Shown piece by piece: positions 1 through 19,633 of a stretch of 64,000 bases of DNA (positions are counted from its first letter, which is position 1; each line of letters starts with the position of its first letter). The stretch is from positions 32,941,967-33,005,966 of the forward strand of contig CM120640.1 of assembly GCA_051362555.1 (NCBI GenBank), read 5' to 3'. The translations under genes were made by a program, and so were the position numbers. Origin of the DNA: Lingula anatina. Its lineage: Eukaryota > Animalia > Brachiopoda. The notes beneath the pieces are model-generated. The model saw only the letters and a list, made by a program, of their open reading frames with translations, was not told where the DNA came from and searched no databases.

Positions 1-1837
1 GTGGAACTTATTCAAATGATCAGGGAAGAATTGCTCAAAGTCTTAAAGATAATCATTACAGGAGTAAATCAGCTGATATTCCACATCTGTCATCAGCTGT
101 GCACAAGAAGGTGGCACTGCGCTTGGACTTGATGGCAAGAAACACGGTGTCGGATGAGATGGTTTCTGTTGCAACAGAGGCCAGACAATCAATTGTAAAC
201 ATAAGAGGCACCAGTCATCAAGGTCAGTTTCGTAAAAGATTTTTTTGAAAGTGAAAAGATTTCTTTTCTTAGTCCTTTATGGGGGAATTTTGCAACTTAT
301 GGAAATAGAATAACAAATTTACTAACTTCAATTTCTATTTGTGAAATAATATGATTTATAGTTATTTGTAAAAAATAACCTGGAATTTTTAGCATTTTCA
401 TTGGTATGATATAAATTATTTCATACTTCAGGAAGTGGCCATCGTGTAATATCACCAACAGGTACATGCTGTGAAACTCCAATGACTCCACAGACTGCAG
501 TGGCCAAACGTTTAGCACTTTTAGGAGACCAGATTTGCCAAGATCCAGAGTTAAACCGCAGACTGCAGGAAGCCATAGATACCATACTCACCTATCCATC
601 TGAAACCCTGACTTATGACATATTTCAGAACACGGCATCACATGTGATGGGGCAGCAAATGCCAGGAACTACACAGGTGAGGGGAATTATGGAATATAAT
701 AGCAAATAGAATTTAAGTATTTAAAGCCATATTATATTAATTTTTTGTTCAGTTTAGGCATGTTTGAGATTTTTTTAAAAAAATTGATGTACATATAGGC
801 AAAGTGCAACACAAAAAAATATTTTGACAAGTATTTCCAAAGCAATATTTAAAAAACAAGACAAGGCCAATTGCAGCAGCTGGGACTGTCAGGACACTTG
901 CTGGAGTGGAACTACACTATCAGTGAATTCAATTGCACTATGATAAAGTGGGGCAAAATGTATCTCTAAGACAATTACCCTTGTGTTGTTTGTAGGTGGC
1001 CCTTTTATTGCGCTTCACCAAACTGGCAGCAGTGGGCTTGACAAAATCTGGTACCTCAGGCATTGGCAGGCTGACAGAATATGCTACTAAACTGATAGCT
1101 GACAGGACTGCAGACTTTATTCTGCAAAATGGAGGATGGGTAAGTGTTTATGAAAAACTTCAATGGTCTGTTTATATACTCCATGTGATGTCCTACAGGA
1201 AAAACATCTGGTTAAAATATACATCTCATCATGGTTTTAGCTAAACCCACAAATACCAGATGATTCATGAAGTTATAAAAAAAAAACACCAACTATATAT
1301 TCTAACTGATACTATTGCAATTTATTCATTTTAAAGGAAAAAGGGAATTAAGATTTGATGAGACAAAAGTCATTTTGAATATTATTTTCTTTGAAGGACG
1401 CAGTTGCGAATGTTGATCCAGATCACATTGACACCAACCCCCTCTTCAGTTCTTCCGACATCAGTCTCCCCGGTGCCCTGTCTCCATTAGAAGTACAGCT
1501 GCCACCTGTTCAGGAAGATGATACTGTAGTCCCAGAGGCTACTGCAAAGGATCAGTCTGATGCACCTGACAGTGGAGGAGAACCTCGAGCTGATGAATCA
1601 ACTGCTGAATCAGAGAAAACCCCTGTTGAACAGTTTGTCTTGAGGAAAAGGGAAAGATCGTTTTCGAGAGAAAGGTCTGATGAATCGGTATTTGCAAATG
1701 AGGATGAAGATGGCACTAGTGATTTTGACTCAGATAGGTTTAGTTACTATACTACGATGGCTATTTATTCAGCGGGTGCAGCAGCAATTGCTGTACTGAC
1801 TCTTGGAGTCTGTATCTTGCTGCTTCGAAAACGCTGA
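1..1837 (+). CDS. Bcl-2 family protein, Bcl-rambo/BCL2L13-like architecture (5'-truncated by the window)
   Basis: Exons <1-222, 432-676, 996-1139, 1397-1837 join in frame (phases 1,0,0; GT-AG). The protein has a BH3-like helix VHKKVALRLDLMAR, a canonical BH3 VAKRLALLGDQI and a degenerate BH1 (GTTQVALLLRF, no NWGR). BH2 ADFILQNGGW|D carries the family-typical intron after GGW. A ~115-aa acidic low-complexity linker follows, then a C-terminal TM (MAIYSAGAAAIAVLTLGVCILLL-RKR). A long linker between BH2 and TM is the BCL2L13 layout. Confidence 0.85.
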
Positions 1838-4298: not shown

Positions 4299-7200
4299 TC
4301 AGTCTAACTCTGAATCTGTTTCTTCCATTACAGAGTCCTGAAAAACATAATGTACACCAGTCAGTAAATGATGTTATAATTCCATCTAATTATTTATTCA
4401 TTTTTCATTATTCCTTCATCCTTTGTTTCATTTCCTCGATGCTATGACATAGGCACATATTCTCTTTTTCAATCAATTGATGTAGCAATGAAACAAGTTA
4501 CTGACAAAGCATAGTACTTATTCATTTTTAAAAATCATCCAGGATACAACCAAATGCTTCTGATCCTACTTCAATTCCTCATAAAAAAATACCTACCCAT
4601 CCTCCTTTGTCCACAAGCCAACCTGCAAATTTGTCCGTAAAGTAAGCCAAAGACATCTCCTTAATCTGAAGAGCCATTGCTCCACCAGCTCCAACAGCAT
4701 TCACTGCAGCTTTTGTGATTTGAAACAGAAGAGCAATTTGCTGAACCTCTGGCTTAGAACCTATGTACCCTGTCAGAGTCTGTTTGAATGAATTATAGGA
4801 GGCATGTTGGATTATTTCTGCTACAGTGGAAGAGAAGGCCTGTGTAGTGGCATAAGACATCTGAAAAATTAAGAAAAATCATTTCATTATCTATTATGTG
4901 CTACTGGGTAGTATGACTTAAATTTTACAGAAACAGTGACACTCTATCATTCTTTTTGGACACAGTTTATTAATGTAATATTTGCACTCAGTGACACTGT
5001 GAGTCACTTTCTTGTCTTCCTCCATAATGACTTCTGAAACTGCTACCTGTTCAGAGTCATGTACTGCATTACAGCACATTATTACTGGCAATTTTCTTAG
5101 AAGTTCCATTTTTGTCAAATAAACAGAAACTGCAATTTTCTTTTTAAAATTTTACTTGTTGACAGCACTTATTTTCAGGACATCTGATTGGTTTTGTTGA
5201 CATTAATAGCATAACTTACTTGAGCATTGATTCTGTCTCCATGACACTTTAAGCACTGGCCCAGGTGAAGTTCCAGTGAGGATGGTTCATGGCTGTGGGG
5301 AGCAGCAGCTGTAGCACCTTCACCAGATCCACCAAATCCTTTATATATAAAGTAATTGCATACATTTATATAGTGCTTTCAATGAAAATGCCACATTTAC
5401 TGGATACTTACTAGTAACTAGAGGATCAGAGAGGCGATACCGCCTCCTGATATTGTACCACCAGCTGGGGTAAGCGCATTTGTATGGGAAAGAAAAAGAA
5501 AGTGGGGCCCCACCTGTATGGTTGTGGGTGACAAGCTGCAGGAAATGTAGTAAACAAGGTGTTTTTTTTTGTTTTTTTTTTGTTTTTTTTTTCAGTTTTG
5601 GCATCTAATGGCTGCTTTTCCCATGAAAATGCATCGATTGACCCCGAACTTCCACACATTAAAGCAGTCTGCAATTGTAACCCCTCAGTATAATATGAGA
5701 GGTAAGGTCTGCTTAGTTTCTGAACATTGGCACAAACAAATATCTTTTTGCAGAAATTCCCTTTTTTGCGATCTAGGAGGATAATTGGTAATGGTGCCTT
5801 TTATCCCACGCCACCCTGCGGAGCCGTACGATATGGGTTGGTACTAAAACCACGAATATTACACACTGGTGGTACTAACTATGGCCATATCTTTGCCAGT
5901 TTTGAAAGTATAAGCACTGAAAAAAGTTGCAATGTTCAGTCCATGGTGAAAAGTAGGTCAAAGGTCAATTTCAAGGTCACAGTTAAATTGCCAGTATATG
6001 ACTTCCTATTCAACTTCAATAGTAACTATTGACCCAACTCTCCTAGTTTTGGGGATATAAGAGACTAAAATTTTTCAAACTTCAGTTAATGGTGAAAAGT
6101 AGGAATGTACTTTTTGATACAGCATAACTCGTGAACCGTATGGAAAACAAAAAAACGGAGACCACTTCCAGTGTTGGGCTTGACATGCTCTATCAAATGC
6201 AAAAAACAAGAGGTCTCTAGCATTAACGACTCCAGAATTAGAGAGAGTTTTATGTTTCAGCATCTAATGGCCGCTGCTCCCGTGAAAATGCATCGATTGA
6301 CTCGAAACTCACAGAGATGAAAGATAACCTGAAGGGTAACAACTACCAAAAATATTAGAGGTTAGGTCTGCTTAGTTTCTGAATATCAGCACAAATAATT
6401 TTTTTTTCGTAAAAAATTCCCTTTTTTTGAAAATTTTGGCCTGTTTGACCTTGAAATAAAGGTCAAAGGTCAAATCCAAGGGCATATTTGGAATCCTCAT
6501 ATGTGACTTTCGGTCAGACTTCTATATTAATTTTTCCCATAATTCCTTCAGTTTGGGAGATATATAGCATTGAATTTTCAAAAATTTTGACAAGGGTGCA
6601 TTTCAACGAGCGTCATGCCCAGGCAATTGCACCGATCGAGACAAAAAAACCAGGGGTTCAAGTTGAGATTATATGTGACCTAAATCCAAGAGATGGGGAC
6701 ACAGGCCCATGCAGTCTAGGAGGAGAAGCGGTAACGGTGACTTGTATCCCACGCCACCCTGCGGAGCCGGCGGAGCTCACGGAGCCGGCGGAGCTTACGG
6801 AGCCGGCGGAGCCGTACGATACGGGTCGGGACTAAAACCATGAGTACCGCCAGCGTACACGCTGGTGGTACTAATAAGTAGCATAACTCTTTTTTAAACG
6901 TGTTAATTTTCAATATGTTCTAAATCTTTTTTTTTTTTTTACTAATTCAAAGTCATGCCAGGTGTTTATTTTTCACAAAAGAAATAAAAATTTACCAGTG
7001 AATTTCTCTCATACAAGTTTTTTGTACATGTCTTACAAAAATTCTGTTGCAATATCTTCAATAACTCACCTGAATCCACTCTATCCCTTGGAGACTCTTT
7101 ATCAGACTGAGTACTTTCTGATTCCACAAAGCTGTCTGCAATGGCTGCAAGCTTTTGTGCAATTTTTTCATACATTTCTTCTTTCTGCTCATGCGTTCGG

Positions 7201-10200
7201 TCATGGTGAGCAGTTCCATCATCAGAAACTGAAAATAAAATGGATTTGAAAATTAACCATTGGTTTTCCCTCAACAATGAAATATCCTACCAGTTGAATA
7301 TCTGGGTATACTTTTTATAAAATAGATATTATTTTAAAAATCCTCAAATACCTTGAACTGTGAGATAATCCCTTGCCATTGTAATGGTTTGAAATAGAAT
7401 ATACCCTCTATGCCTTCTGTTAATACTACAGATAAAATGTATTCCTCTCTGATGATACAATTATAATTAAGTGATGTTTTGTTTTCTATCTCCTTTATAA
7501 GACTAAAGTAACTTCCCTCCATCGCTGGCATATATATATACACCAGGCGATGTGCCACTTTACAGGTCAGAGGTAGGGACGGCTGACATCACCAAACTTC
7601 CACAGACAGTAAGTTTGTTTACTCATATATTTCTTTGAAAGACAGTTATCTGCACCAGGCGCTCAGAAGCACTTGGTGCTTGGGATGTATCGAGACTGAC
7701 ACATTGTGGTTGTCTGTGAACCCGATCCCCAACAATAACGATACTGACGGGAAGATATATACGTATTTAATGTAATAATCGAAAGTCTTCTTTAATAATT
7801 AGATCAGGGGATTTGAATCTAAATCGCCACTTTGTTTGCCAACAAAAGAGAAATATCTAGTCTCCAGTGGTTATAAGAATAGCAATAGGTACATAAATTC
7901 TAGTCCATAGCCCCAAACATTGTTTTCAATAGGAACATGCTGAACAGGAACTGAGGAATTTGTATTCCCTGAATATCTACCAAGAAGTAGGGTTATGGGT
8001 TAATTACATTACCTAGAGTTCATCAACCACACCAAAGGAAGTGGTTGGAGATTCCAAGACGTTTAGTTTTACTCAATTCCAAATACTAGTTTAAAAGAAA
8101 AGTCTCCGTAATGCATTATTTTTTTTTAAATACTAGAGCCCTCAATATGTGGAAAAACTGCAGGCACTATGAGCTGCTTTCTACATTTTCAGTTATCACT
8201 TGGTAACTTAAACAGACAACAAGACTATGGGGTATGCTAAGGACTCGCATTTATTTCCCAGGGATGCTCAAAATGATAGACACCCATACTTAAGATACCT
8301 ACGTGGGGGTACTAATTTCCCCCATTAGTTACCCATAAGTGAAACCAATATGCATGGACATAAATCTTCCTCCCTTGAACCTATACTGTAAGTCTTATTC
8401 CCATGAACATATTGTTACTTATTTTCATAGACAACCATGGTGAAATCAGTGAAACCCCTTTCCTTGGACATGTCACATTGGTTCTGCTTTTTTAAGTCTC
8501 TAACAAATAGATATTTTCAAACACTGGTAAAAAATTTGTTTGTTTGTTTTTCGTTTTGTTGTTTGTTTCTTCTTTAATACATATACCATCATTTTGCTTG
8601 CTGCATATGCAGTTCTCTTATGTCTTACTTTAAAGAGTTAAAAATACAATTCATATCATCAACCTTTTTTCAAAAATGTCACTTGCCTTAACAAGAGACA
8701 TCCAGATAAATGCTAACAAAAGCACAAGCTCAAAAAATACAGGGCCTCTAGTAACAGGTGTGCCTGCAACCTAACCAGCATGTGTTTTTGACACTTCACC
8801 TTAAGACAATACATCACCCCATGTGCACCTGTAAGTACCTGCAAGAGTGATTGGGTGTGATGATTCATTATTCATGTACTGTACAGTCCTGTTCTATAAC
8901 ATATAATTCCTGGGATTTCAAGTGAAGGCAACCTACGGAGGAGCTCAAATTAAGATGAATGAGAATGACATAAAACGCTGACTTAACATTGATACCATAT
9001 GATAAAAATATCTCAGTATTTTTTTTTTTGATAGTGGAATACATAAAATATCCTGTTAACTTGTAAGAAAGCAAAATGATGGATATTTTTGTGATTTAAA
9101 TTTGGAGTGTTTTTTTACTGTTCATTTAATCGTAAGGTTATGAAATATCCATTCTTTCCTTCTAAACCTCTCTCAATATTGATATAATTCACATGTTCAT
9201 TCTATAATTGCTTGATACTGTGCAAATAACACAAATATTATTTGGGAAAATATCTTTGGAAACTGAACTAAATGCCCTCCATGCACAGCAATTAATTAAG
9301 TTCAGGTCAATCATTAATAACAATTCCTGTCAGATTGGACTGGGTTTCTGAACCATGTACTTGGCCATTGCATATTGCCAAGAATGGGGTCATGCCTCAC
9401 ATTAGCAGTGCTTAACATAAGAAAAGGAGCTGGTCTCTCTGGAAAGCACCTGTTTGGTTGGCAGGAGAGGGAAACAATCAGGAAGTGAAGTGTTGCAGAT
9501 ATTATTAATTGAGAAAGACAACAAGGCCGTGTCTGAAAACTGATTAATGCTTTCAGTGAACATCTGCTGATTCTAAATTTTAGGACTACATGCTCTGGGT
9601 ATGGGGTTTCACCTTATGACTTCCTATTATGATCATTCCTTTGTTTTTACAGTGATTCACCTAAGCACTCATTAAAAGGGATTATCATAACATCTCATTT
9701 CCAACCAAAGTTTTACAGATCATAGGTATTTCTCATGAGGGTTACCTTGAAACACAGCCTTAATCAACTAATACCAGGCCAGAAAAAGAGGTGTAAGGAG
9801 CTTACAGATCTTTTATACCTTCTTGATGTTAAATAAGTAGTAAGTGCAAAAGAAAAGGCAGAGATTGTTATTACCGTATGTAACAGTCAGCTGAACAATA
9901 CTTTGCGGTCAAAACAACTGAGGAAACATAGGGTTAAACAATAAAAACTTAAAATTAACAGGGGAATTTGGTTGACAGGCTTAACAAAATTTCTTACATC
10001 TTTAAGACAACAGTAGGTTGCAAAAGCATATGAACTTCTGGTGATACTTACTTCCTGGAGTTACCAAGCCATCTTCGACAACACTACTCTGCAAGGTAAG
10101 ATGATGACGCTGACATTTGTGACTGACAATATTCTCCACTGTTCCATCAGGGTGGCGGACTTTTCTCTCTGTAGTATCACAATCAATTTCAACCTCACAG

Positions 10201-12425
10201 TTTTCATACTGAGAACAGGGCCTGTGACACGCCAGACCGTGAAGTTGAAGTTGACTGCGATCTGCAGGAGGGCCCATTGGAGAGATGGGCATTGTTGACC
10301 CCTGAGAGGAATCAATGCCCATCTGAGACATGGTCAGTCCGTCCACATCATCCAGACTGTCCTGGCGCTCAAGCACTTGCTGAAACACCCTGGTCACTTT
10401 GCGTTTGTCACTTCCATCAACTTCTACATTGGATGCCACGTATGGTAAGTTATGGAATACAGCAACAGCAGCACTGTTGGACGGAGTCTGAGGAGTAGTG
10501 CCACTACTTGATTTTTTCCTTTTTTCAGCTGTAAAAAAACATTTTTAATTAAAACATTTTTCTTTTTTCATGAAAGCTTTAATCAAAGATTAATCAAACT
10601 ATCATCATGTATTAATAAGTCAATAATTAAACTGGCTTCCAGTATTAACTCCTTATTTATCTATTTTACTGATTACTCAAGTATTCCATTTACTAAAGTA
10701 TTTCATAATATACACCCGTTTTAAAAATGAGAGGCTAGATAAGAGTCCAGTAGCAATCCCATGACTCCAATACATAAATTTAGAAATTGTGTTTCCTATG
10801 ATTTTTTATGGTTCCATAGGGATATGGCCCAAGTATGTATCTACTACATGAAATCAAAGGGAACCTTTCTCAATGGCAACCGTTTGCCATCTTGTTAAAA
10901 TGCATTGTTTAGAATGTGATTCTGACTTTCATGCTTGGGGATCTAAACCAAAATTACTAGTACCCTGCAATATTTTAAACAAGTTCTAGTGAAAAATAAT
11001 ATTTCTGCTGCTGGCCATTAAAATCCAAACGGTAAAGGGATATCTATAAACAAGTTTCAAGTGCAAAAATGGGCTGAAACGGAGGCATGAACCAACATCA
11101 AGGGTTTTTCTATGCAAGGGTGTTTATCTTTCAACTGCTAAAAGTTCCCAAAGAGGCTGCCATGTACTAAATTTGTTCTGTGACTGACCCAATGGGACCT
11201 TGAATAAAAAGACACTCCACAGGAAACAATTTCTAGGTTCCAAAAAAATTACCTGACCTATAAGAAATAATGACAACTACTTCTTTCTCTCATACTGATT
11301 TGGAAACTTACATTTGGAAAATTTTCTCTTCAGTGATGAACTACTTTTTTTCATCTGCTTTAAGACATTGTCAAAGGCTCCACTACTTTCTTTCACTTTG
11401 CTAGTCTTTTCTTTATGCATCTTGGTGCCATGTTCCATATCATTGACATCAGTAACTTGCTGGGTATTCTCAGTGCGTAGAATGACTCCACTGCTCAAAC
11501 TACCAGACTTGTTGGTTAGCTGGGACTGACTTGACGGTGTCAATTCTTGGTGGTAATGTGTTTTTGTGTGAGTATGTTTTTCTGATAAGATGTCATCCTT
11601 GTCTAATAATTCAAAAGAGCTTAAAGTGGATCGTGATTTTAAGCTATCCAGGGTCGAACCCAAGTCTACAGCTTGACTTGACTTCACGCTGTCTACGCTG
11701 TCCCGTTTTCTCAGGCTCCATCTTGAACTTTTCTTTGGTTTATTTTTCTTCTCTTTTTTTGCTTTGTTCTTTTCTATTCTCTCGGCATTTAATTCAACAC
11801 GTGAAATTTCTGCTGATTTAGAAAGCTCTTTGTTTTTGAAATTATCCTTCTTTTTTCTGCGAAATGTTTCTCGTAATCTTTCTGTAGCTCGTTTAAAGGG
11901 ACTTTTCTTTTTCTTCTTGCTGGCAACAGAAGTAGCATCAGATGTCTCACTGCTCGATTCAAAATCAGTGTCTTTCCTTGGTGAGGGAGATGTGCTTTTC
12001 TGCTCGTGTGTTGATGTTGCTGTTAACCTTTGCATGCTTGTGTGGTCATTTGCTAATATATCCAAGTCCATCTCAATGCTAGAACCTCGAGAATTTCTTA
12101 TTTTTTCCCTTAAGTTGGCATTAAAATCTGAAGATGACACAGTGTGTGCTTTGCGTACAGGAGGGCGATATTTGTAAGTTCCATTTTCAATATCATCAAT
12201 AACCTGATCCTCTGAGGCTAAACAGTAACTCTGCCTTTTCCACTGCTGTCTCTCTTCTTCACGGACTTCAACTTCAATTATTTTCTGTTTCATTGGTGTT
12301 GGTGGAGCACTTGTGCGCAGGTTGCGTTGCAGCATATGCTCCAGCACACGCCGTGCTTCCTCTGTCACCAGAGGGATACTGGTAGACCTTCCAGCTCCCA
12401 TACCAGGACGAGTCTTGGTACTCAT
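4299..12425 (-). CDS. Large soluble Bcl-2 family protein, Bcl-G (BCL2L14)/BCL2L12/BID-like, 723 aa
   Basis: Exons 12425-11312, 10528-10052, 7228-7070, 5338-5220, 4860-4597, 4337-4299 total 2172 nt with all phases compatible. N-terminal BH4-like EARRVLEHML, then a long basic/Ser-rich disordered region. BH3-like MYEKIAQKLAAIADSF and BH3 LGQCLKCHGDRI follow, then SYNSFKQTL, QQIALLFQITK and BH2 AGWLVDKGGW|D. It ends DSVMEETDSELD* with no TM, like Bcl-G's short acidic tail. Confidence 0.85.
5418..6875 (-). mobile_element. Non-autonomous Helitron/Helentron (HINE-like) element, copy 1, with internal partial duplication
   Basis: On the minus strand the 5' end is TTATTAGTACC followed by a palindrome (plus 6844-6871 GTACCGCCAGCGT-AC-ACGCTGGTGGTAC) and a GC-rich 9/18-bp minisatellite (6761-6813). 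TTGACCTT-rich blocks follow. The 3' hairpin GAGGCG-N4-CGCCTC lies ~9 nt before a terminal CTAG at ~5418. Segment 5592-5878 is an internally deleted second copy of 6255-6873. Similar to 16406-17978 and 18690-19335. Confidence 0.7.
6761..6813. repeat. GC-rich minisatellite (CGGAGCCGG/CGGAGCTYA units) inside the Helitron-like element
   Basis: About three 18-bp units built from 9-bp subunits; it produces the PAELTE repeat in ORF 6488..6835. Confidence 0.85.
7352..7379 (-). CDS. Candidate alternative first coding exon (MARDYLTVQ) of the Bcl-G/BID-like gene, giving a ~202-aa short isoform
   Basis: ATG at 7379 has a strong context (ACAATGG). The donor AG|GTATTT at 7351 is phase 1, matching the phase-1 acceptor at 7228 (123-nt intron). 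A TATAAAG box lies on the minus strand at ~7499-7493 with no ATG between it and 7379. Confidence 0.5.
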
Positions 12426-14046: not shown

Positions 14047-15029
14047 TTTTTCATCTTTTTCTTTTGGTCCACTGAAACATACTGATATCTGTCTCAATTA
14101 AGAAATTATGTAAGACATCTTTATTTTAGTTTTGTCTTTCTAACAGCTTTTCATGTTTCAATGTGCTGAATGAGAGAAAGTGAAAAAAAGTAAGTCCAAC
14201 TTACAGATATGTGTCATTCTCTTTAAAAATCTTAGTAAAATTGAGTCAAATGTTGTCTTATAGTTTCCAGCAAAATTATTTTTTAGTTAAATTAAAGTAC
14301 TGTACATTAAAGTACTGTATTAAAATATATCAAACAAAATTAGATGATTAATTTATAGAGAAAGTCTACAAAATGTCACAAACTTACTGTTATGTCTTTC
14401 CTTCAGTTTAAATCTGACTAAAATATTTAAGGAAACCAGCTATAAATACTAGTAAATGGAAGCTATTTATAACTACAAAAACTCCCCCTCAAGCAGTGAC
14501 AGCACCTGTATGTGACACAGAAAGTTGATGATGTCATCAATCTCTATGTGGACAATCACATGAATAGATGCTTAATTAGCCAGAAAAGTAATCTTCAGCT
14601 ATACTGATAAGTTGATAACTCATTATATTGCTTTGAATAATCAGAAAATTTTAGGTTGGCATCAAAATTCTTCTCAGGGCTCTTTTTTGTGAGAAAGTCT
14701 TAGTACAAATGACCAATAAAACTTTTCCCCCAAAGATATTTGAACTTGGAAACCATCATTAAGTCAGCTCCTAAAATACCATTCTTTTTCTCTTTAGACT
14801 GGTAAAAAGAGGTGTCGTACAGTATTACTATTAATTAGATTTTCACATAAAACTTGTCCACATATCAGACATGATAATACTTACACTTAAGATAAGATAG
14901 CATGGGTTACCAACTGCGCTAAATGAATATTTACCAGTACAAAAATGTCAAAAACCCGAAGATCCAGTGGCAGTAGACGTATCTGAGATAATATTTAGCG
15001 TTCCACTTACACTTTCAGTGGTCACATAC

Positions 15030-15370
15030 CTTGACGTGTTCTTTTCTCCCTGTTTCGTTAAGTAATATCACAGCTTTTCCTCTATTTGGTGTCTCTGTAG
15101 TTCGCATAAACGACAACACAAGTGTGTGACCTCAAAATGTTCTCAGGTGTAAGATGACTCAACACAGGAAGTGCTTCTTCACAAATACAACGGGAAATAT
15201 TTTATCCAATGAACGGCGTCAACATTTACACTGCAAGGCTTTTCTCGTGTGTGTTCACTTTTCCACGTTTAAACCTCGTTCTCGAGAATTTCGGATATGC
15301 GAAACTCTACATCTATTAGTAAAATTGTCCCTGAAAATGAGAACATGACCTAAAAAAACCACACGTAAAA
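15030..15370. promoter_or_regulatory. Bidirectional promoter shared by the Bcl-G-like gene (-, non-coding first exon ending at donor 15029) and MRPL23 (+)
   Basis: Locally CpG-rich. Minus-strand donor GTATGT at 15029; MRPL23 ATG at 15371. Motifs: AP-1 TGACTCA 15155-15161, ETS CAGGAAGTG ~15166, CCAAT ~15206, TTC-N4-GAA 15279-15288. Confidence 0.6.
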
Positions 15371-17776
15371 ATGGCACATTGGATGAAAAGGGCAGGCTCT
15401 ATGTAAGTTTGTATATTTTATAGAATGTGATACACAGGATAAAACCATGTAGGTGCAGCAGCAATCGGTAGCACTGCATCACACTTGCTTATTATGTCAG
15501 TAAGATGCACGTAACTGTGAGTGTTACAATTATATATCTTGATTACTCCCGAATCCTACCAAGATTAGTTAGTTACATTAAGTCTAGCTGTTCCTAACAA
15601 CTATTTATAAGATTGGATACACGTATATTGCAAATGCAATAATATCCATGACATGTTCAGGGTTGGCAGAAGGACTTGTGTTAAGGTAAATGCCCCGATA
15701 GAAAGTTATGTTTGGGTCGCTTCTTCATGTAATATCGATTGCCCCCTGTTTGACATCTACTGGGGCGCATCTACTGTACTGGTAAAAAGCACACTTCAGT
15801 GATCCATACAGAGTGCAACATACAGGTCAAAGCAACTAATTTGAAATATTGACCCTGAGTGTCTTTGGCAATGTTTTCTCATACAGGCATGACATGGCAA
15901 TAAACACATGATGGTAAACATAAATAATAAGTCGTTTCCAGGGGACTTTTTTATTCAAAATTGTATTCATTGTTATGATTCCTGTTCATGCTTCTCATTT
16001 CAGACTTCCATTTTGGAAAAGAACAATTCCGCCATTCCCTGTCTACTGGAAAGGAGATCCGAAGAACAGAGTATTTCTACCTACCTTTTGGATGAAATTA
16101 GTAAAACCAGACCGTGAAATGCCCCCAGACTATTTGCAATTTATAGTACATAAACAGTAGGTTTCACAGTAGCTTTTGAATCCCATATGATGGAATATGG
16201 GATAAAATGTGTTTATGTGATGGTCAGCATTAAAATTCAGGCATAGCTGAAATCTGCCAAGTTTGATTAACGTAAGGGATTTTGTTTAAATGAGAAAACT
16301 TTGTATTAAGCAAAGAACTTAATTTTTACCCTGGCATGTAATAAATTTTCATTTGGTTCTAAAGTTGTTTAAGACTGTTCATTTGGACTCTCTTCTGGGC
16401 TAATTTTATTGTACCACCAGCGTAGGCGCTGGCAGTACACATGGTTTTAGTCCTGTTCTGCCGGCTCCGCCGCCATGTCACCGTTACTGCTTCTCCTCCT
16501 AGATTACAAGGGCCTGGGTACCCATCTCTTCGATTTAGGTCACCTATAATCTTAACTCGTTCCACTTAAAATTTGGGCTTCGTCGGTGCTGGGGTCTAGG
16601 TGTGGCACTCATTGCAATGCACCTTTGTCCAAAATTGGCAAAATTAAATGCTAATTATCTACCATACCAAAGGAATTAAGGGAAAAATTTCTACAGACGG
16701 CTGACCGGAAGGCATATGTGGAGATTTCAAGTATGCCCTTGGATTTGACCTTTGACCTTTATTTCAAGGTCAAACTGACCAAAATTTTCAAAAAAACAAT
16801 TTTTTATGGAAAATTCATTCATTTGCGCTGATATTCAGATACTACATAGACCTAACCAATAATATTATTGTCAGGTCATCTTTCCTCTCTGTGAGGTTGG
16901 GGTCAATCAGTGCATTTTCACAGGAGTAGCGGCCATAAGTTACCGAAACTGAAAACTCTCTAATTCAGGAAAAGCATGTCAAGCCCAACACTGAGGTGGT
17001 CTCCGTTTTTTGTGTTCCATACGGTTTATGAGTTATGCTGTATCAAAAAGTACATTGTGGTGGTGAAAGTTAAATGTGCAATACGGTAATATGCATAAAA
17101 TTTTGAACATATAGAAAAGATAACATAAGGCTTGGCAAGGCAGACAACTTCTGGTCAAAAATGACATTTTTTCATGAAATTTGAACATCTGATCACCTCC
17201 CATTTCAAGAATCTCAAACAAAATGATCCTTCTTTATTTGAATTAATTTATTCTGTAGGAATTTTATGGCACATTATTGTAACTCCAAAATTGTAACATT
17301 TAGTCCCTTATATCTCCAAAACTGGCAGAGATAGGTCCATAGTTACTATTGAAGTTAAATGCTAAGTCATACACTGGTTATCTAACTGTGACCTTGAAAT
17401 TGACCTTTGACCTACTTTTCATGATGAACTGCACTTTGCATGTTTTCTGGCCTTTAAATCTGCAAAATTGGCAAAGAAATGCCCATGGTTACTATAGAAC
17501 TTGAATAGGAAGTCATATACTGTGACATTGAAAATGACCTTTGACCTACTTTTTCACCATGAACTGAACTTTGCATATTTTCTTGCCCCTCATATCTTCA
17601 AAACCAGCTGAGATATGCCGAGTTGCCCCTAGGTTTTCTCTTTGTGAGCATATATGCAACACTGACAACACATTTCAAGAAAAACCAATAGGCCTTTTGT
17701 CTAGAAAATCACATGAGTGATCAATGTTTAGAAAATACAGGTCAATTTGAAAATCTGCTTCATTGTACCATTTAAA

Positions 17777-17814
<38 letters not shown>

Positions 17815-19633
17815 ACATTTTTCTGCAAATTTTTAGAACTGTTGTTGATTGTATTTTATAGAGCTTGTCAAGCACAAGACTGGTGGTGGTGTCCCTTTTT
17901 TGGGGGGTCAATATGAATGTGCTTACTCCAACTGGTGGTACAACATCCGGAGGCAGTATGGCCTCTCTGATCCTCTAGTTTCTGTCTGGATTTCAGACTT
18001 GACTGTGACATTTTCATAACATGAAGAAATGACCACACTTGACCATCCTGTTGCAAATTAACAAATGACTCGAGTATGTTCAAAGTGTAAGCACTTTCAC
18101 TAAAATTGTTTGACAGTCGTAAGGTTTATCTAGGAATATGATTGAACTTTTGAATGGCCTTTCTTTTCTAGAATGAGCACCCATGATGTGAAAAATTACT
18201 TGGAAAAGATATATGAGGTACCAGTTCTTAGGGTCAGAACAGAAATAAGAAGAGGTATGTGTGATATATATAAACCGAACTTTAAAAAAAAAACTTGCTT
18301 AAGTGTCTGTATAGTGTCTGGAGATAAAAAATTTAGTCATTTCAAATGTCACTGTTCAATAATATATAAGTGATTTGACTTCTCATTTACCAGATGATTG
18401 TGATATATGAACCATTTCATATTTCTATATTTAAGGTATACCATTTACTAAGGAAATGTGGCTTAAATATGTTCGGAATCCAGGTTATCCAATTCATCAG
18501 CGGTTTCCACGCGATGCTGAGCGAGAAATGTCAGGGGTTATCAACTTTACAGATGAATTTAAAGTAGCCTATGTGCAAGTGGTAAGAACTTAATTTGAGC
18601 ATTTGTATGCTATTTGCTTTTATTGATGTAAATTGAGTATTATGCATGTGTAAGTTGTGAATATTGGAAATATTTATTTTTGAAGTTGATTATTAGTACC
18701 ACTAGCGTGTACGCTGGCAGTACTTATGGTTTTAGTACCGATCCATCTCAGCTCTGCCGCATGGGATACAAATCTCCTTTACTGCTTCTCCTCCTAGACC
18801 ACAAGGACCTGTGTCCCCATCTCTTGGATTTAGGTCACATATGATTTCAACTTGAACCCTCTGTTTTTTTGTCTTAGTCAGTGCATTGGACTGACCGTGA
18901 TGCTCGTTGAAATGCACCCTTGTCAAAAATTTTGAAAATTCAATGCTAAATATCTCCCAAGCCAAAGGAAACATGGGAAAAATTGTTATAGAAGTCTAAC
19001 TGAAAGTCATATGTGGAGATTACAAATATGCCCCTGGATTTGACTTTTGACCTCTGTTTCAAGGTCAAACTGGCCAAAATTTTCTAAAAATGGGAATTTT
19101 CGGCCAAAAAATGTTTGTGCCAATTCTCAGAAATTACACAGACCTTAGCTCTCATATTATAGTGAAAGGTTACAATTAGGGACTCCTTTCATCTTTGGGA
19201 GTTTGGGGTCAATCGGTGCATTTTCAAGGGAGAAGGAGCCATGAGATACCAAAACAGAAAACTCTCTCTTATTCTAGAACCGTAAATGCTAGAGGCCTTT
19301 TGTTTTTTGTTTTGTAGAGCTTGTCAAGCGCAATACTTTTTTTTTTTTTTTTTGTCTTAACTGCACCATGTCTCTGTATATAAAATATTTATTGTAATTC
19401 TTATATTTTCTTGCAACTTCACAAATGTTTCAATTTATTTATATATAATCTGGTAATTGTATTATTTGGTTCATTTGCAGCCTGAGGAAGTGAAATTTAC
19501 TTGGCCGGATATTTTTAAAGAAAATAAACCACTTATGGAAAAGGCTTTGGAAGAAAGGAAGAAATTTTCAAAAGAACAAAAGCGTTTGGAAAAATCCAAA
19601 GGCAGTAAAGACTTGCCAGCATGGTTTAGGTGA
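15371..19633 (+). CDS. MRPL23: Mitochondrial ribosomal protein L23 (uL23m)
   Basis: Exons 15371-15402, 16004-16156, 18172-18254, 18436-18581, 19481-19633 are in frame. Motifs PVYWKGDPKNRVFLPTFWMKLV, MSTHDVKNYLEKIYEVPVLRVRT, DEFKVAYVQ, FTWPDIF and LPAWFR* parallel MRPL23. Confidence 0.93.
16406..17978 (+). mobile_element. Helitron/Helentron-like element, copy 2 (interrupted), MRPL23 intron 2
   Basis: Starts TTATTGTACCACCAGCGTAGGCGCTGGCAGTAC and shares TTGACCTTTGACC blocks and the 16976-17053 block with copy 1. Ends with hairpin GAGGCAGTATGGCCTC + TCTGATCCT-CTAG|T. Confidence 0.65.
18690..19335 (+). mobile_element. Helitron/Helentron-like element, copy 3 (3'-truncated), MRPL23 intron 4
   Basis: 5' end TTATTAGTACCACTAGCGTGTACGCTGGCAGTAC; colinear reverse-complement similarity to ~6180-6875. 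Confidence 0.7.

Follow-up and report, generated by a model that had tools for sequence, protein, structure and literature searches.

The question raised by a 64,000-nucleotide stretch of the brachiopod Lingula anatina (contig CM120640.1, positions 32,941,967 to 33,005,966; the window) is whether the Bcl-2-like gene LOC106152312 encodes a counterpart of BID, the protein that couples death-receptor caspases to mitochondria, and in which form. A preliminary description had proposed that an internal promoter produces a 202-amino-acid (aa), BID-sized isoform activated by caspase cleavage. A BID-like, cleavage-activated switch is plausible at this locus in another register and in the long protein, while the short alternative-promoter form found no support. 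The gene product is a Bcl-2-fold protein devoid of a transmembrane (TM) helix; it belongs to a bilaterian invertebrate family that may correspond to the Bcl-G/Bfk/BID proteins of vertebrates, and it may act as a latent death switch opened by a caspase cut in its long loop; for this reading as a whole, we hold belief and doubt to be evenly balanced.

LOC106152312, retrieved with exon 4860-4597, codes for a product of 723 aa (P0001; P numbers label sequences in the protein search output). A six-exon minus-strand model (12425-11312, 10528-10052, 7228-7070, 5338-5220, 4860-4597, 4337-4299) reproduces this protein with 6 substitutions in 723 aa, and the three RefSeq transcripts of the locus all code for one identical 723-aa protein. 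Features of the gene, including those of the proposed short isoform, are as follows (a slash marks the predicted cut).

11312-12425, minus strand: first coding exon, residues 1-371, including a basic helix at ~176-222 (match to P0001; joint 11312/10528, 26 reads)
12309-12377, minus strand: BH4-like α1 helix, residues ~17-39 (conserved motif; Bcl-2 fold alignment)
10052-10528, minus strand: second coding exon, residues 372-531, mainly disordered loop (joint 10052/7228, 52 reads)
10338-10352, minus strand: DDVD/G, residues 431-435, predicted caspase-3/7-type site (from the sequence; 123 residues before L557)
7493-7499, minus strand: TATAAAG, proposed internal promoter, no sign of use (spanned by unspliced read pairs)
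7352-7379, minus strand: proposed cryptic first coding exon, likely intron (valid frame; no joint listed, intron-level depth)
7070-7228, minus strand: exon with BH3-like helix 1 (residues 543-571; L557-D562) and the non-conserved DRVD/S (579-583) (joint to 5338, 23 reads)
5220-5338, minus strand: exon with BH3-like helix 2 (LKCHGD, L613-D618), aligning with the BH3 of BAX and Bcl-xL (joint 5220/4860, 53 reads)
4597-4860, minus strand: exon with core helices up to the BH2 motif, ending GGW (Pfam Bcl-2 E 0.058 for this exon alone)
4299-4337, minus strand: final coding exon, with a TM-less acidic tail that ends in DSELD (junction 4597/4337 not among the RNA joints listed)

Sequence motifs and the predicted fold together assign the protein to the Bcl-2 family, as a helical bundle with BH motifs. 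BH3 and BH2 are present in the Lingula protein and the BH1 motif NWGR is absent (sequence and alignment), the W-x-x-x-x-GGW of BH2 being aligned to BAX. The family profile retrieved Bcl-xL from the PDB with E 5e-13 (the best 60 of 167 hits were all Bcl-xL/Bcl-2), and the Pfam Bcl-2 domain was found in 48 of 60 members, P0001 not being among them at E<0.1. An AlphaFold model built with a 60-row alignment (predicted local distance difference test, pLDDT, 62; predicted template modelling score, pTM, 0.44) is confident at residues 11-40 (pLDDT 75-91), 541-570 and 641-710, with pLDDT <50 at residues 378-401 and 407-478 of the second coding exon; a single-sequence model (pLDDT 42) was not used. VIA-align mapped model residues 14-23 to ~719 onto solved Bcl-2 folds, beginning with their first helix: BOK (Z 12.4, root-mean-square deviation, rmsd, 3.6, 132 aligned), Bcl-xL (Z 11.8), BAK (Z 11.2) and BFK (Z 10.2, rmsd 3.5, 117 aligned), and all 22 chains with Z>=8 were Bcl-2-fold proteins. 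Since these Z values lie within ~2 of each other, the 723-aa model cannot rank close subfamilies. Foldseek yielded nothing at E<=0.001, and BID was not among the rows listed for Foldseek and VIA-align, though it may stand further down. Because the structural match starts at the first helix, the N-terminal helix is the predicted α1 of the fold; it is encoded in exon 12425-11312, so that the residue mapping behind the short form is not supported and the 202-aa protein would be devoid of α1.

Within the Bcl-2 family, the best core sequence and fold scores belong to Bcl-xL/BAX/BOK. These multidomain proteins possess BH1 and a TM anchor; the Lingula protein, unlike them, has neither, and its loop spans ~500 residues. 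In the ESM Atlas, where scores below a bar of 0.9 count as leads only, it led to BCL2L14 clusters (0.88, 0.86) and BCL2L15 (0.85). The earlier designation as a TM-less, Bcl-G-like gene is thus borne out by the acidic tail and the ESM Atlas lead.

A search of 1.84 billion representative sequences returned 110 hits, many of them 440-930 aa long or single-exon fragments, and no vertebrate sequence. Named members come from brachiopods, molluscs, nemerteans, annelids, a nematode (Plectus), echinoderms, hemichordates and amphioxus. The analysed set comprises 55 sequences of at least 195 aa from P0001-P0111 in which the C-terminal domain is present, three N-terminal fragments being excluded. From N- to C-terminus, the family layout consists of an N-terminal helix (its motif occurs in 40 of the 47 aligned members that reach 440 aa), a long low-complexity loop, BH3-like helix 1, a linker of mostly 20-50 aa, BH3-like helix 2, core helices, BH2 and an acidic TM-less tail; 34 of the 55 relatives end in [ED][LVI][DE]. 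Helix 1 stands alone in three members (P0097, P0098, P0100), which form a weakly supported clade. The family tree contains no vertebrate rows and its base is unresolved.

Several observations on individual parts of the family may be added here. P0108 of Plectus sambesii is a full member with N-terminal helix, helix-1 GD and acidic tail, groups with amphioxus on long branches, and possibly reflects either true retention or contamination. In the long loop of P0001, β-hairpins are predicted at residues 278-295, 315-329 and 482-514, one of them His/Thr-rich (pLDDT up to ~90), and hairpin-like segments recur in some relatives; we know of no β-hairpins of this sort in Bcl-2 proteins. The conserved basic helix at ~170-222 of P0001 (23 of 45 long members show KKKS-x-F) is possibly a nuclear or membrane-targeting signal.

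The two BH3-like helices differ in their likeness to agonist BH3 motifs. The pattern L-x-x-hydrophobic-[GA]-D is found in helix 1 of 45 of the 55 sequences and in helix 2 of 8, plain LxxxGD being counted 30 times in helix 2 and 25 times in helix 1. A 38-column helix-1 profile was built from Lingula and 21 of 27 listed sequences (left out were the misaligned P0052, P0065 and P0085, the near-duplicates P0035 and P0080, and P0100, which had previously matched BID). Against 177,635 PDB sequences, the top 7 of its 11 hits were BID BH3 (E 0.017-0.97), followed by BMF and designed binders. The corresponding helix-2 profile (Lingula and 21 of 27 others) was unspecific, with unrelated helices first and BID, BAX, BIM and PUMA peptides mixed in. 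The Pfam BID family (PF06393) matched 8 of 60 members at 12.7-19.7 bits (cut-off 25), 7 of the 8 over helix 1, and did not match P0001. P0100 retrieved BID alone from the PDB (3 of 3 hits, E 0.09-0.23), along tBID residues ~75-188. BID likeness at the sequence level is therefore consistent but weak, and it lies on the helix that the preliminary description would discard: there, LKCHGD was taken for the canonical BH3, although by pattern counts and profiles it is the less agonist-like of the two, so that a cut at DRVD would throw away the BID-like helix.

Caspase-type sites gather at a different place from the one first suggested. In the linker between the two helices, where DRVD/S had been put forward as the cleavage site, DxxD[GSA] occurs in 2 of 55 sequences, which equals chance level (shuffle mean 2.0). 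Ahead of helix 1, by contrast, 28 of 55 sequences carry the motif at a distance of 10-60 residues from the leucine of that helix (shuffles averaged 7.9 and reached at most 17), compared with a frequency of 11 % in other loop windows, and five of these 28 have an exact DEVDG. Given the established sequence preference of caspase-3/7, these motifs may be taken as caspase sites. The distance from site to helix 1 has a median of 29.5 residues; in human BID, D60 and L90 are 30 residues apart. Besides gastropods, the site-bearing members include bivalves, a cephalopod, annelids, a nemertean, amphioxus and the single-BH3 forms. The numbering match to BID, on which the preliminary description had relied, is not diagnostic, since Bcl-xL is likewise cut at D61, in the α1-α2 loop (PMC4880054), and L613-D618 match its residues 90-95 at equal length.

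From these features, the following sequence of events may be envisaged. The N-terminal helix would fold back as α1 across ~500 mostly disordered residues. A caspase would cut at DxxD/G in the long loop (D434 of DDVD/G in Lingula, ~30 residues before BH3-like helix 1 in many relatives), which would release the α1 lid, and the C-terminal piece would then expose the BID-type BH3 of helix 1, which could then bind pro-survival Bcl-2 proteins or BAX/BAK, as in tBID and the proposed tBfk. No internal promoter would be needed for such a switch. Bfk (BCL2L15) shares the Bcl-2 fold, a lid helix, a DEVD-type site before BH3, BH2 and the lack of a TM helix, and Bid-like activation by cleavage has been proposed for it (PMC8814693). 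Unlike the invertebrate family, it is a small protein with a single BH3, and its loop is short; the scores of other Bcl-2 folds equal or exceed that of Bfk.

A number of findings weigh against a caspase-gated switch of BID type. The site is unevenly distributed: 14 of the 28 site-bearing sequences fall into a single clade of 18 rows, in which the members with names are gastropods; no site lies in the 10-60 window of the named members from echinoderms and hemichordates; and in Lingula itself the DxxD[GSA] nearest to helix 1, DDVD/G, is 123 aa upstream, with none inside 60 aa (poorer motifs, VVED/G and ISDD/G, lie near helix 1). Every likeness to BID is weak, remaining under the Pfam 25-bit cut-off and at E>0.01 in the PDB; the helix-1 test was not blind, because the helix was chosen after the likeness had been noticed; the Lingula helix-1 exon alone retrieved designed proteins only and no BID from the PDB; and Lingula has AD in place of GD in this helix. 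P0001, P0034 and P0097 match BAX/Bcl-xL/Bcl-2 in the PDB, not BID, and the Pfam Bcl-2 domain is far more frequent than Pfam BID (48 vs 8 of 60 members). BH2 is kept, unlike in BID. The model, with its pTM of 0.44, does not show which of the two BH3-like helices is buried. Furthermore, brachiopods are reported to be without APAF-1 (PMC11463336), and work on mouse and human found no apoptotic role for Bcl-G (PMC10244440).

The latter point leads to the strongest alternative, a Bcl-G-like protein with a non-apoptotic role, e.g., in trafficking or scaffolding via the long loop and acidic tail, in which the BID-like BH3 and DxxD/G would be generic or vestigial. Bcl-G (BCL2L14) resembles the Lingula protein in having BH3 and BH2, no canonical BH1 NWGR, a long N-terminal region and no TM helix, and the ESM Atlas leads, all below the bar, are headed by BCL2L14. 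In mammals, Bcl-G is a TRAPP-binding protein that apoptosis does not require (PMC10244440), and conserved elements outside the BH motifs (basic helix, predicted β-hairpins) suggest other partners. The comparison with Bcl-G, which has 327 aa (PMC10244440) vs 723 aa in Lingula, was made by features and ESM Atlas scores; unlike Bcl-G, the family has two BH3-like helices, the first an intact agonist type, plus an upstream caspase-type site. The helix-1 BH3 consensus retained across phyla and the enrichment of DxxD/G would both need another reason if the role were non-apoptotic. We regard this alternative as possible, while leaning clearly away from it.

Less probable is a constitutive BH3 donor, in which helix 1 would be exposed in the loop and bind Bcl-2 proteins uncut, the acidic DG motifs serving for phosphorylation or inactivation. 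The two BH3-like helices cannot share the α2 slot, and Lingula has no nearby canonical site; both points speak for such a donor. On the other side, the distance from site to BH3 in the relatives clusters around 30 residues, the BID value, and an always-exposed agonist BH3 would be costly for a gene expressed in all RNA runs examined. On balance, we consider this explanation improbable.

As regards the proposed short isoform, its sequence elements were all confirmed: TATAAAG at 7499, the ATG in ACAATGG at 7379, the phase-1 GT donor at 7351 and the acceptor before 7228. Splicing 7379-7352, 7228-7070, 5338-5220, 4860-4597 and 4337-4299 yields 202 aa with L36, DRVD61/S and L92-D97 as claimed. Use of the cryptic exon, in contrast, was not seen in the RNA runs read. 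Six of nine same-species runs were read (X1, X2, X3, X4, X7 and X9, about 6-30 % of each, tissues unspecified), and LOC106152312 is transcribed in all six. Joints were counted directly over 6990-10589 in four of them (X1, X2, X3 and X9; one row of loose ends fell outside the listing). The sole joint listed at 7228 leads to 10052, with 16, 9, 25 and 2 reads in X1, X2, X3 and X9, respectively, and three further X9 reads end loose at 7228 bearing letters of exon 10052; no 7352 joint was listed in these four runs next to the 52-55 reads joining 7228 to 10052. From this, the short form would amount to at most about 5-6 % of transcripts, a rough bound for the sampled runs that is loosened by 5' under-coverage and unspecified tissues. 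Depth over 7350-7469 (0.19, 0, 0 and 1.73 in X1, X2, X3 and X9) is comparable to other intron bins. The base counts are consistent with one unspliced pair in X1, every base being at or above 7364, and with one unspliced X9 pair crossing donor and TATA into the intron; in X4 and X7, depth at 7364-7810 is zero. Summed depth is 69 for exon 7228 and 72 for exon 10052, and with equal depths on both sides of the intron no extra internal start is visible.

The sequence elements may be put into perspective by chance expectation. The 2.8-kb intron contains 64 ATG-to-phase-1-GT pairs, of which the candidate at 7379 scores highest, and a set of TATA, Kozak ATG and good donor appears in 4-36 % of Markov-simulated introns, depending on a stringency set post hoc. 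Isoforms are all long in Lineus (768-853 aa), Acanthaster (644-772) and Branchiostoma (523-564), and the short relatives P0006 and P0080 look like fragments, because their close kin have 623 and 575 aa. The 202-aa transcript is thus likely a splice model that arose by chance: neither the internal promoter nor the short isoform has RNA support, RefSeq holds the 723-aa protein only, and the alternative-promoter story is best abandoned unless a short transcript turns up in new RNA data. A tissue- or stage-specific internal promoter for an isoform activated at DRVD/S, for which the valid frame, the best ATG-donor pair of the intron (4 % of simulations at the strictest setting) and the sampling of some tissues and stages only may be cited, is very improbable in view of the missing 7352-7228 junction, intron-level depth in six runs, exclusively long isoforms in Lingula and the three other genera, and a product that would lack α1 and lose its better BH3 by a cut at a non-conserved site.

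The same RNA data revealed further features of the locus. An interspersed repeat family occupies 5413-6877, in the intron between exons 7070 and 5338, with relatives at 16411-17553 and 18690-19309; the copies are 70-90 % alike in both orientations, RNA depth is hundreds-fold and drawn from elsewhere in the genome, and the element is probably a non-autonomous transposon. In X1, RNA depth on both strands at ~14963-15400, with a candidate donor at 15031, likely marks a first exon without coding sequence, together with a promoter that also serves a plus-strand ribosomal-L23-like gene at ~18.1-18.4 kb. Most X9 reads on exons 10528-10052 and 7228-7070 fall below 99 % identity and carry many differences that X1-X3 do not show; such differences recur in X7 at other places, and both runs possibly derive from a distinct population or cryptic species.

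The relation of the long protein to BID can also be approached from its genomic position. The window begins within a convergent gene:

1-1837, plus strand: BCL2L13 (Bcl-rambo)-like gene, exons 1-222, 432-676, 996-1139 and 1397-1837, starting before the window (P0136 and P0154 map here)

Its protein has a Bcl-2 domain (Pfam E 5e-6), an acidic insert and a C-terminal hydrophobic TM-like tail; in the ESM Atlas, its BCL2L13 cluster hits (0.91 and 0.90) are outscored by an unnamed cluster of chordate Bcl-2 (0.93). The stop codon lies 2.5 kb from LOC106152312 and the two genes are tail-to-tail, as presumably are human BCL2L13 and BID. In human, BCL2L13, BID and MICAL3 are consecutive genes (PMC7862319), and the position of LOC106152312 beside a BCL2L13-like gene thus matches the place of human BID. 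In the neighbour, too, two BH3-like helices occur (the first degenerate by eye), with a phase-1 intron between them, which fits an ancient duplication. Counting against the argument from synteny, the arrangement was seen in one invertebrate genome only; a search for relatives of the neighbour protein returned Lingula only. In RefSeq, an older contig bears a pair of loci, LOC106152308 (547 aa) and LOC106152310 (259 aa), both of which match this gene and represent either a tandem duplicate or an assembly artefact.

BID and the family thus have in common the BCL2L13 adjacency, seen in Lingula, and the absence of a TM helix; BID also ranks first, at weak E-values, with the helix-1 profile, and many relatives show a comparable order of lid helix, candidate cleavage site, ~30 residues and BH3. 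BID differs in having no BH2 (PMC8814693), 195 aa and one BH3 after the cut, and the likeness stays under curated cut-offs; it is reported first in cartilaginous fishes (PMC8998228). By the Pfam cut-off or by the absence of BH2, the Lingula protein does not belong to the BID family; it may work like BID and share ancestry with it. One may speculate that the family is an invertebrate co-orthologue of BID, and that a pair of BCL2L13 and a 'proto-BID-Bcl-G' with a caspase-gated BID-type BH3 predates the protostome-deuterostome split, a proposal we make tentatively and with doubt slightly prevailing.

Elsewhere in the window, the minus strand encodes a WD40 protein at 21.3-24.7 kb (which we take to be NUP37-like), a C-terminal-motor kinesin with coiled coil at 32-47 kb and a tetratricopeptide repeat (TPR) protein with NPHP3-type repeats at 57.9-63.8 kb.

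For Lingula, caspases with death effector domains (DED) and FADD are on record, and the available part of that report names no linker of this kind (PMC11463336); accessions of the genes described here were not found in the available part of its supplement. In open full text, older subscription literature on Bcl-2 phylogenomics lying outside this scope, we found no published account of an invertebrate BID-like protein, of this family or of BCL2L13 linkage in invertebrates. A widespread, mostly 'uncharacterized' family, placed beside a BCL2L13-like gene in Lingula, in which a lid helix is combined with a candidate caspase site and a BH3 of BID type, is a candidate for the origin of BID, and it bears on the open question of Bcl-G conservation across species (PMC10244440). 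If the proposed co-orthology is true, vertebrate BID would have kept the first BH3 beside BCL2L13, whereas Bcl-G and its kin would have kept the second BH3 together with BH2, and BID would be a trimmed ancient gene rather than an invention of jawed vertebrates.

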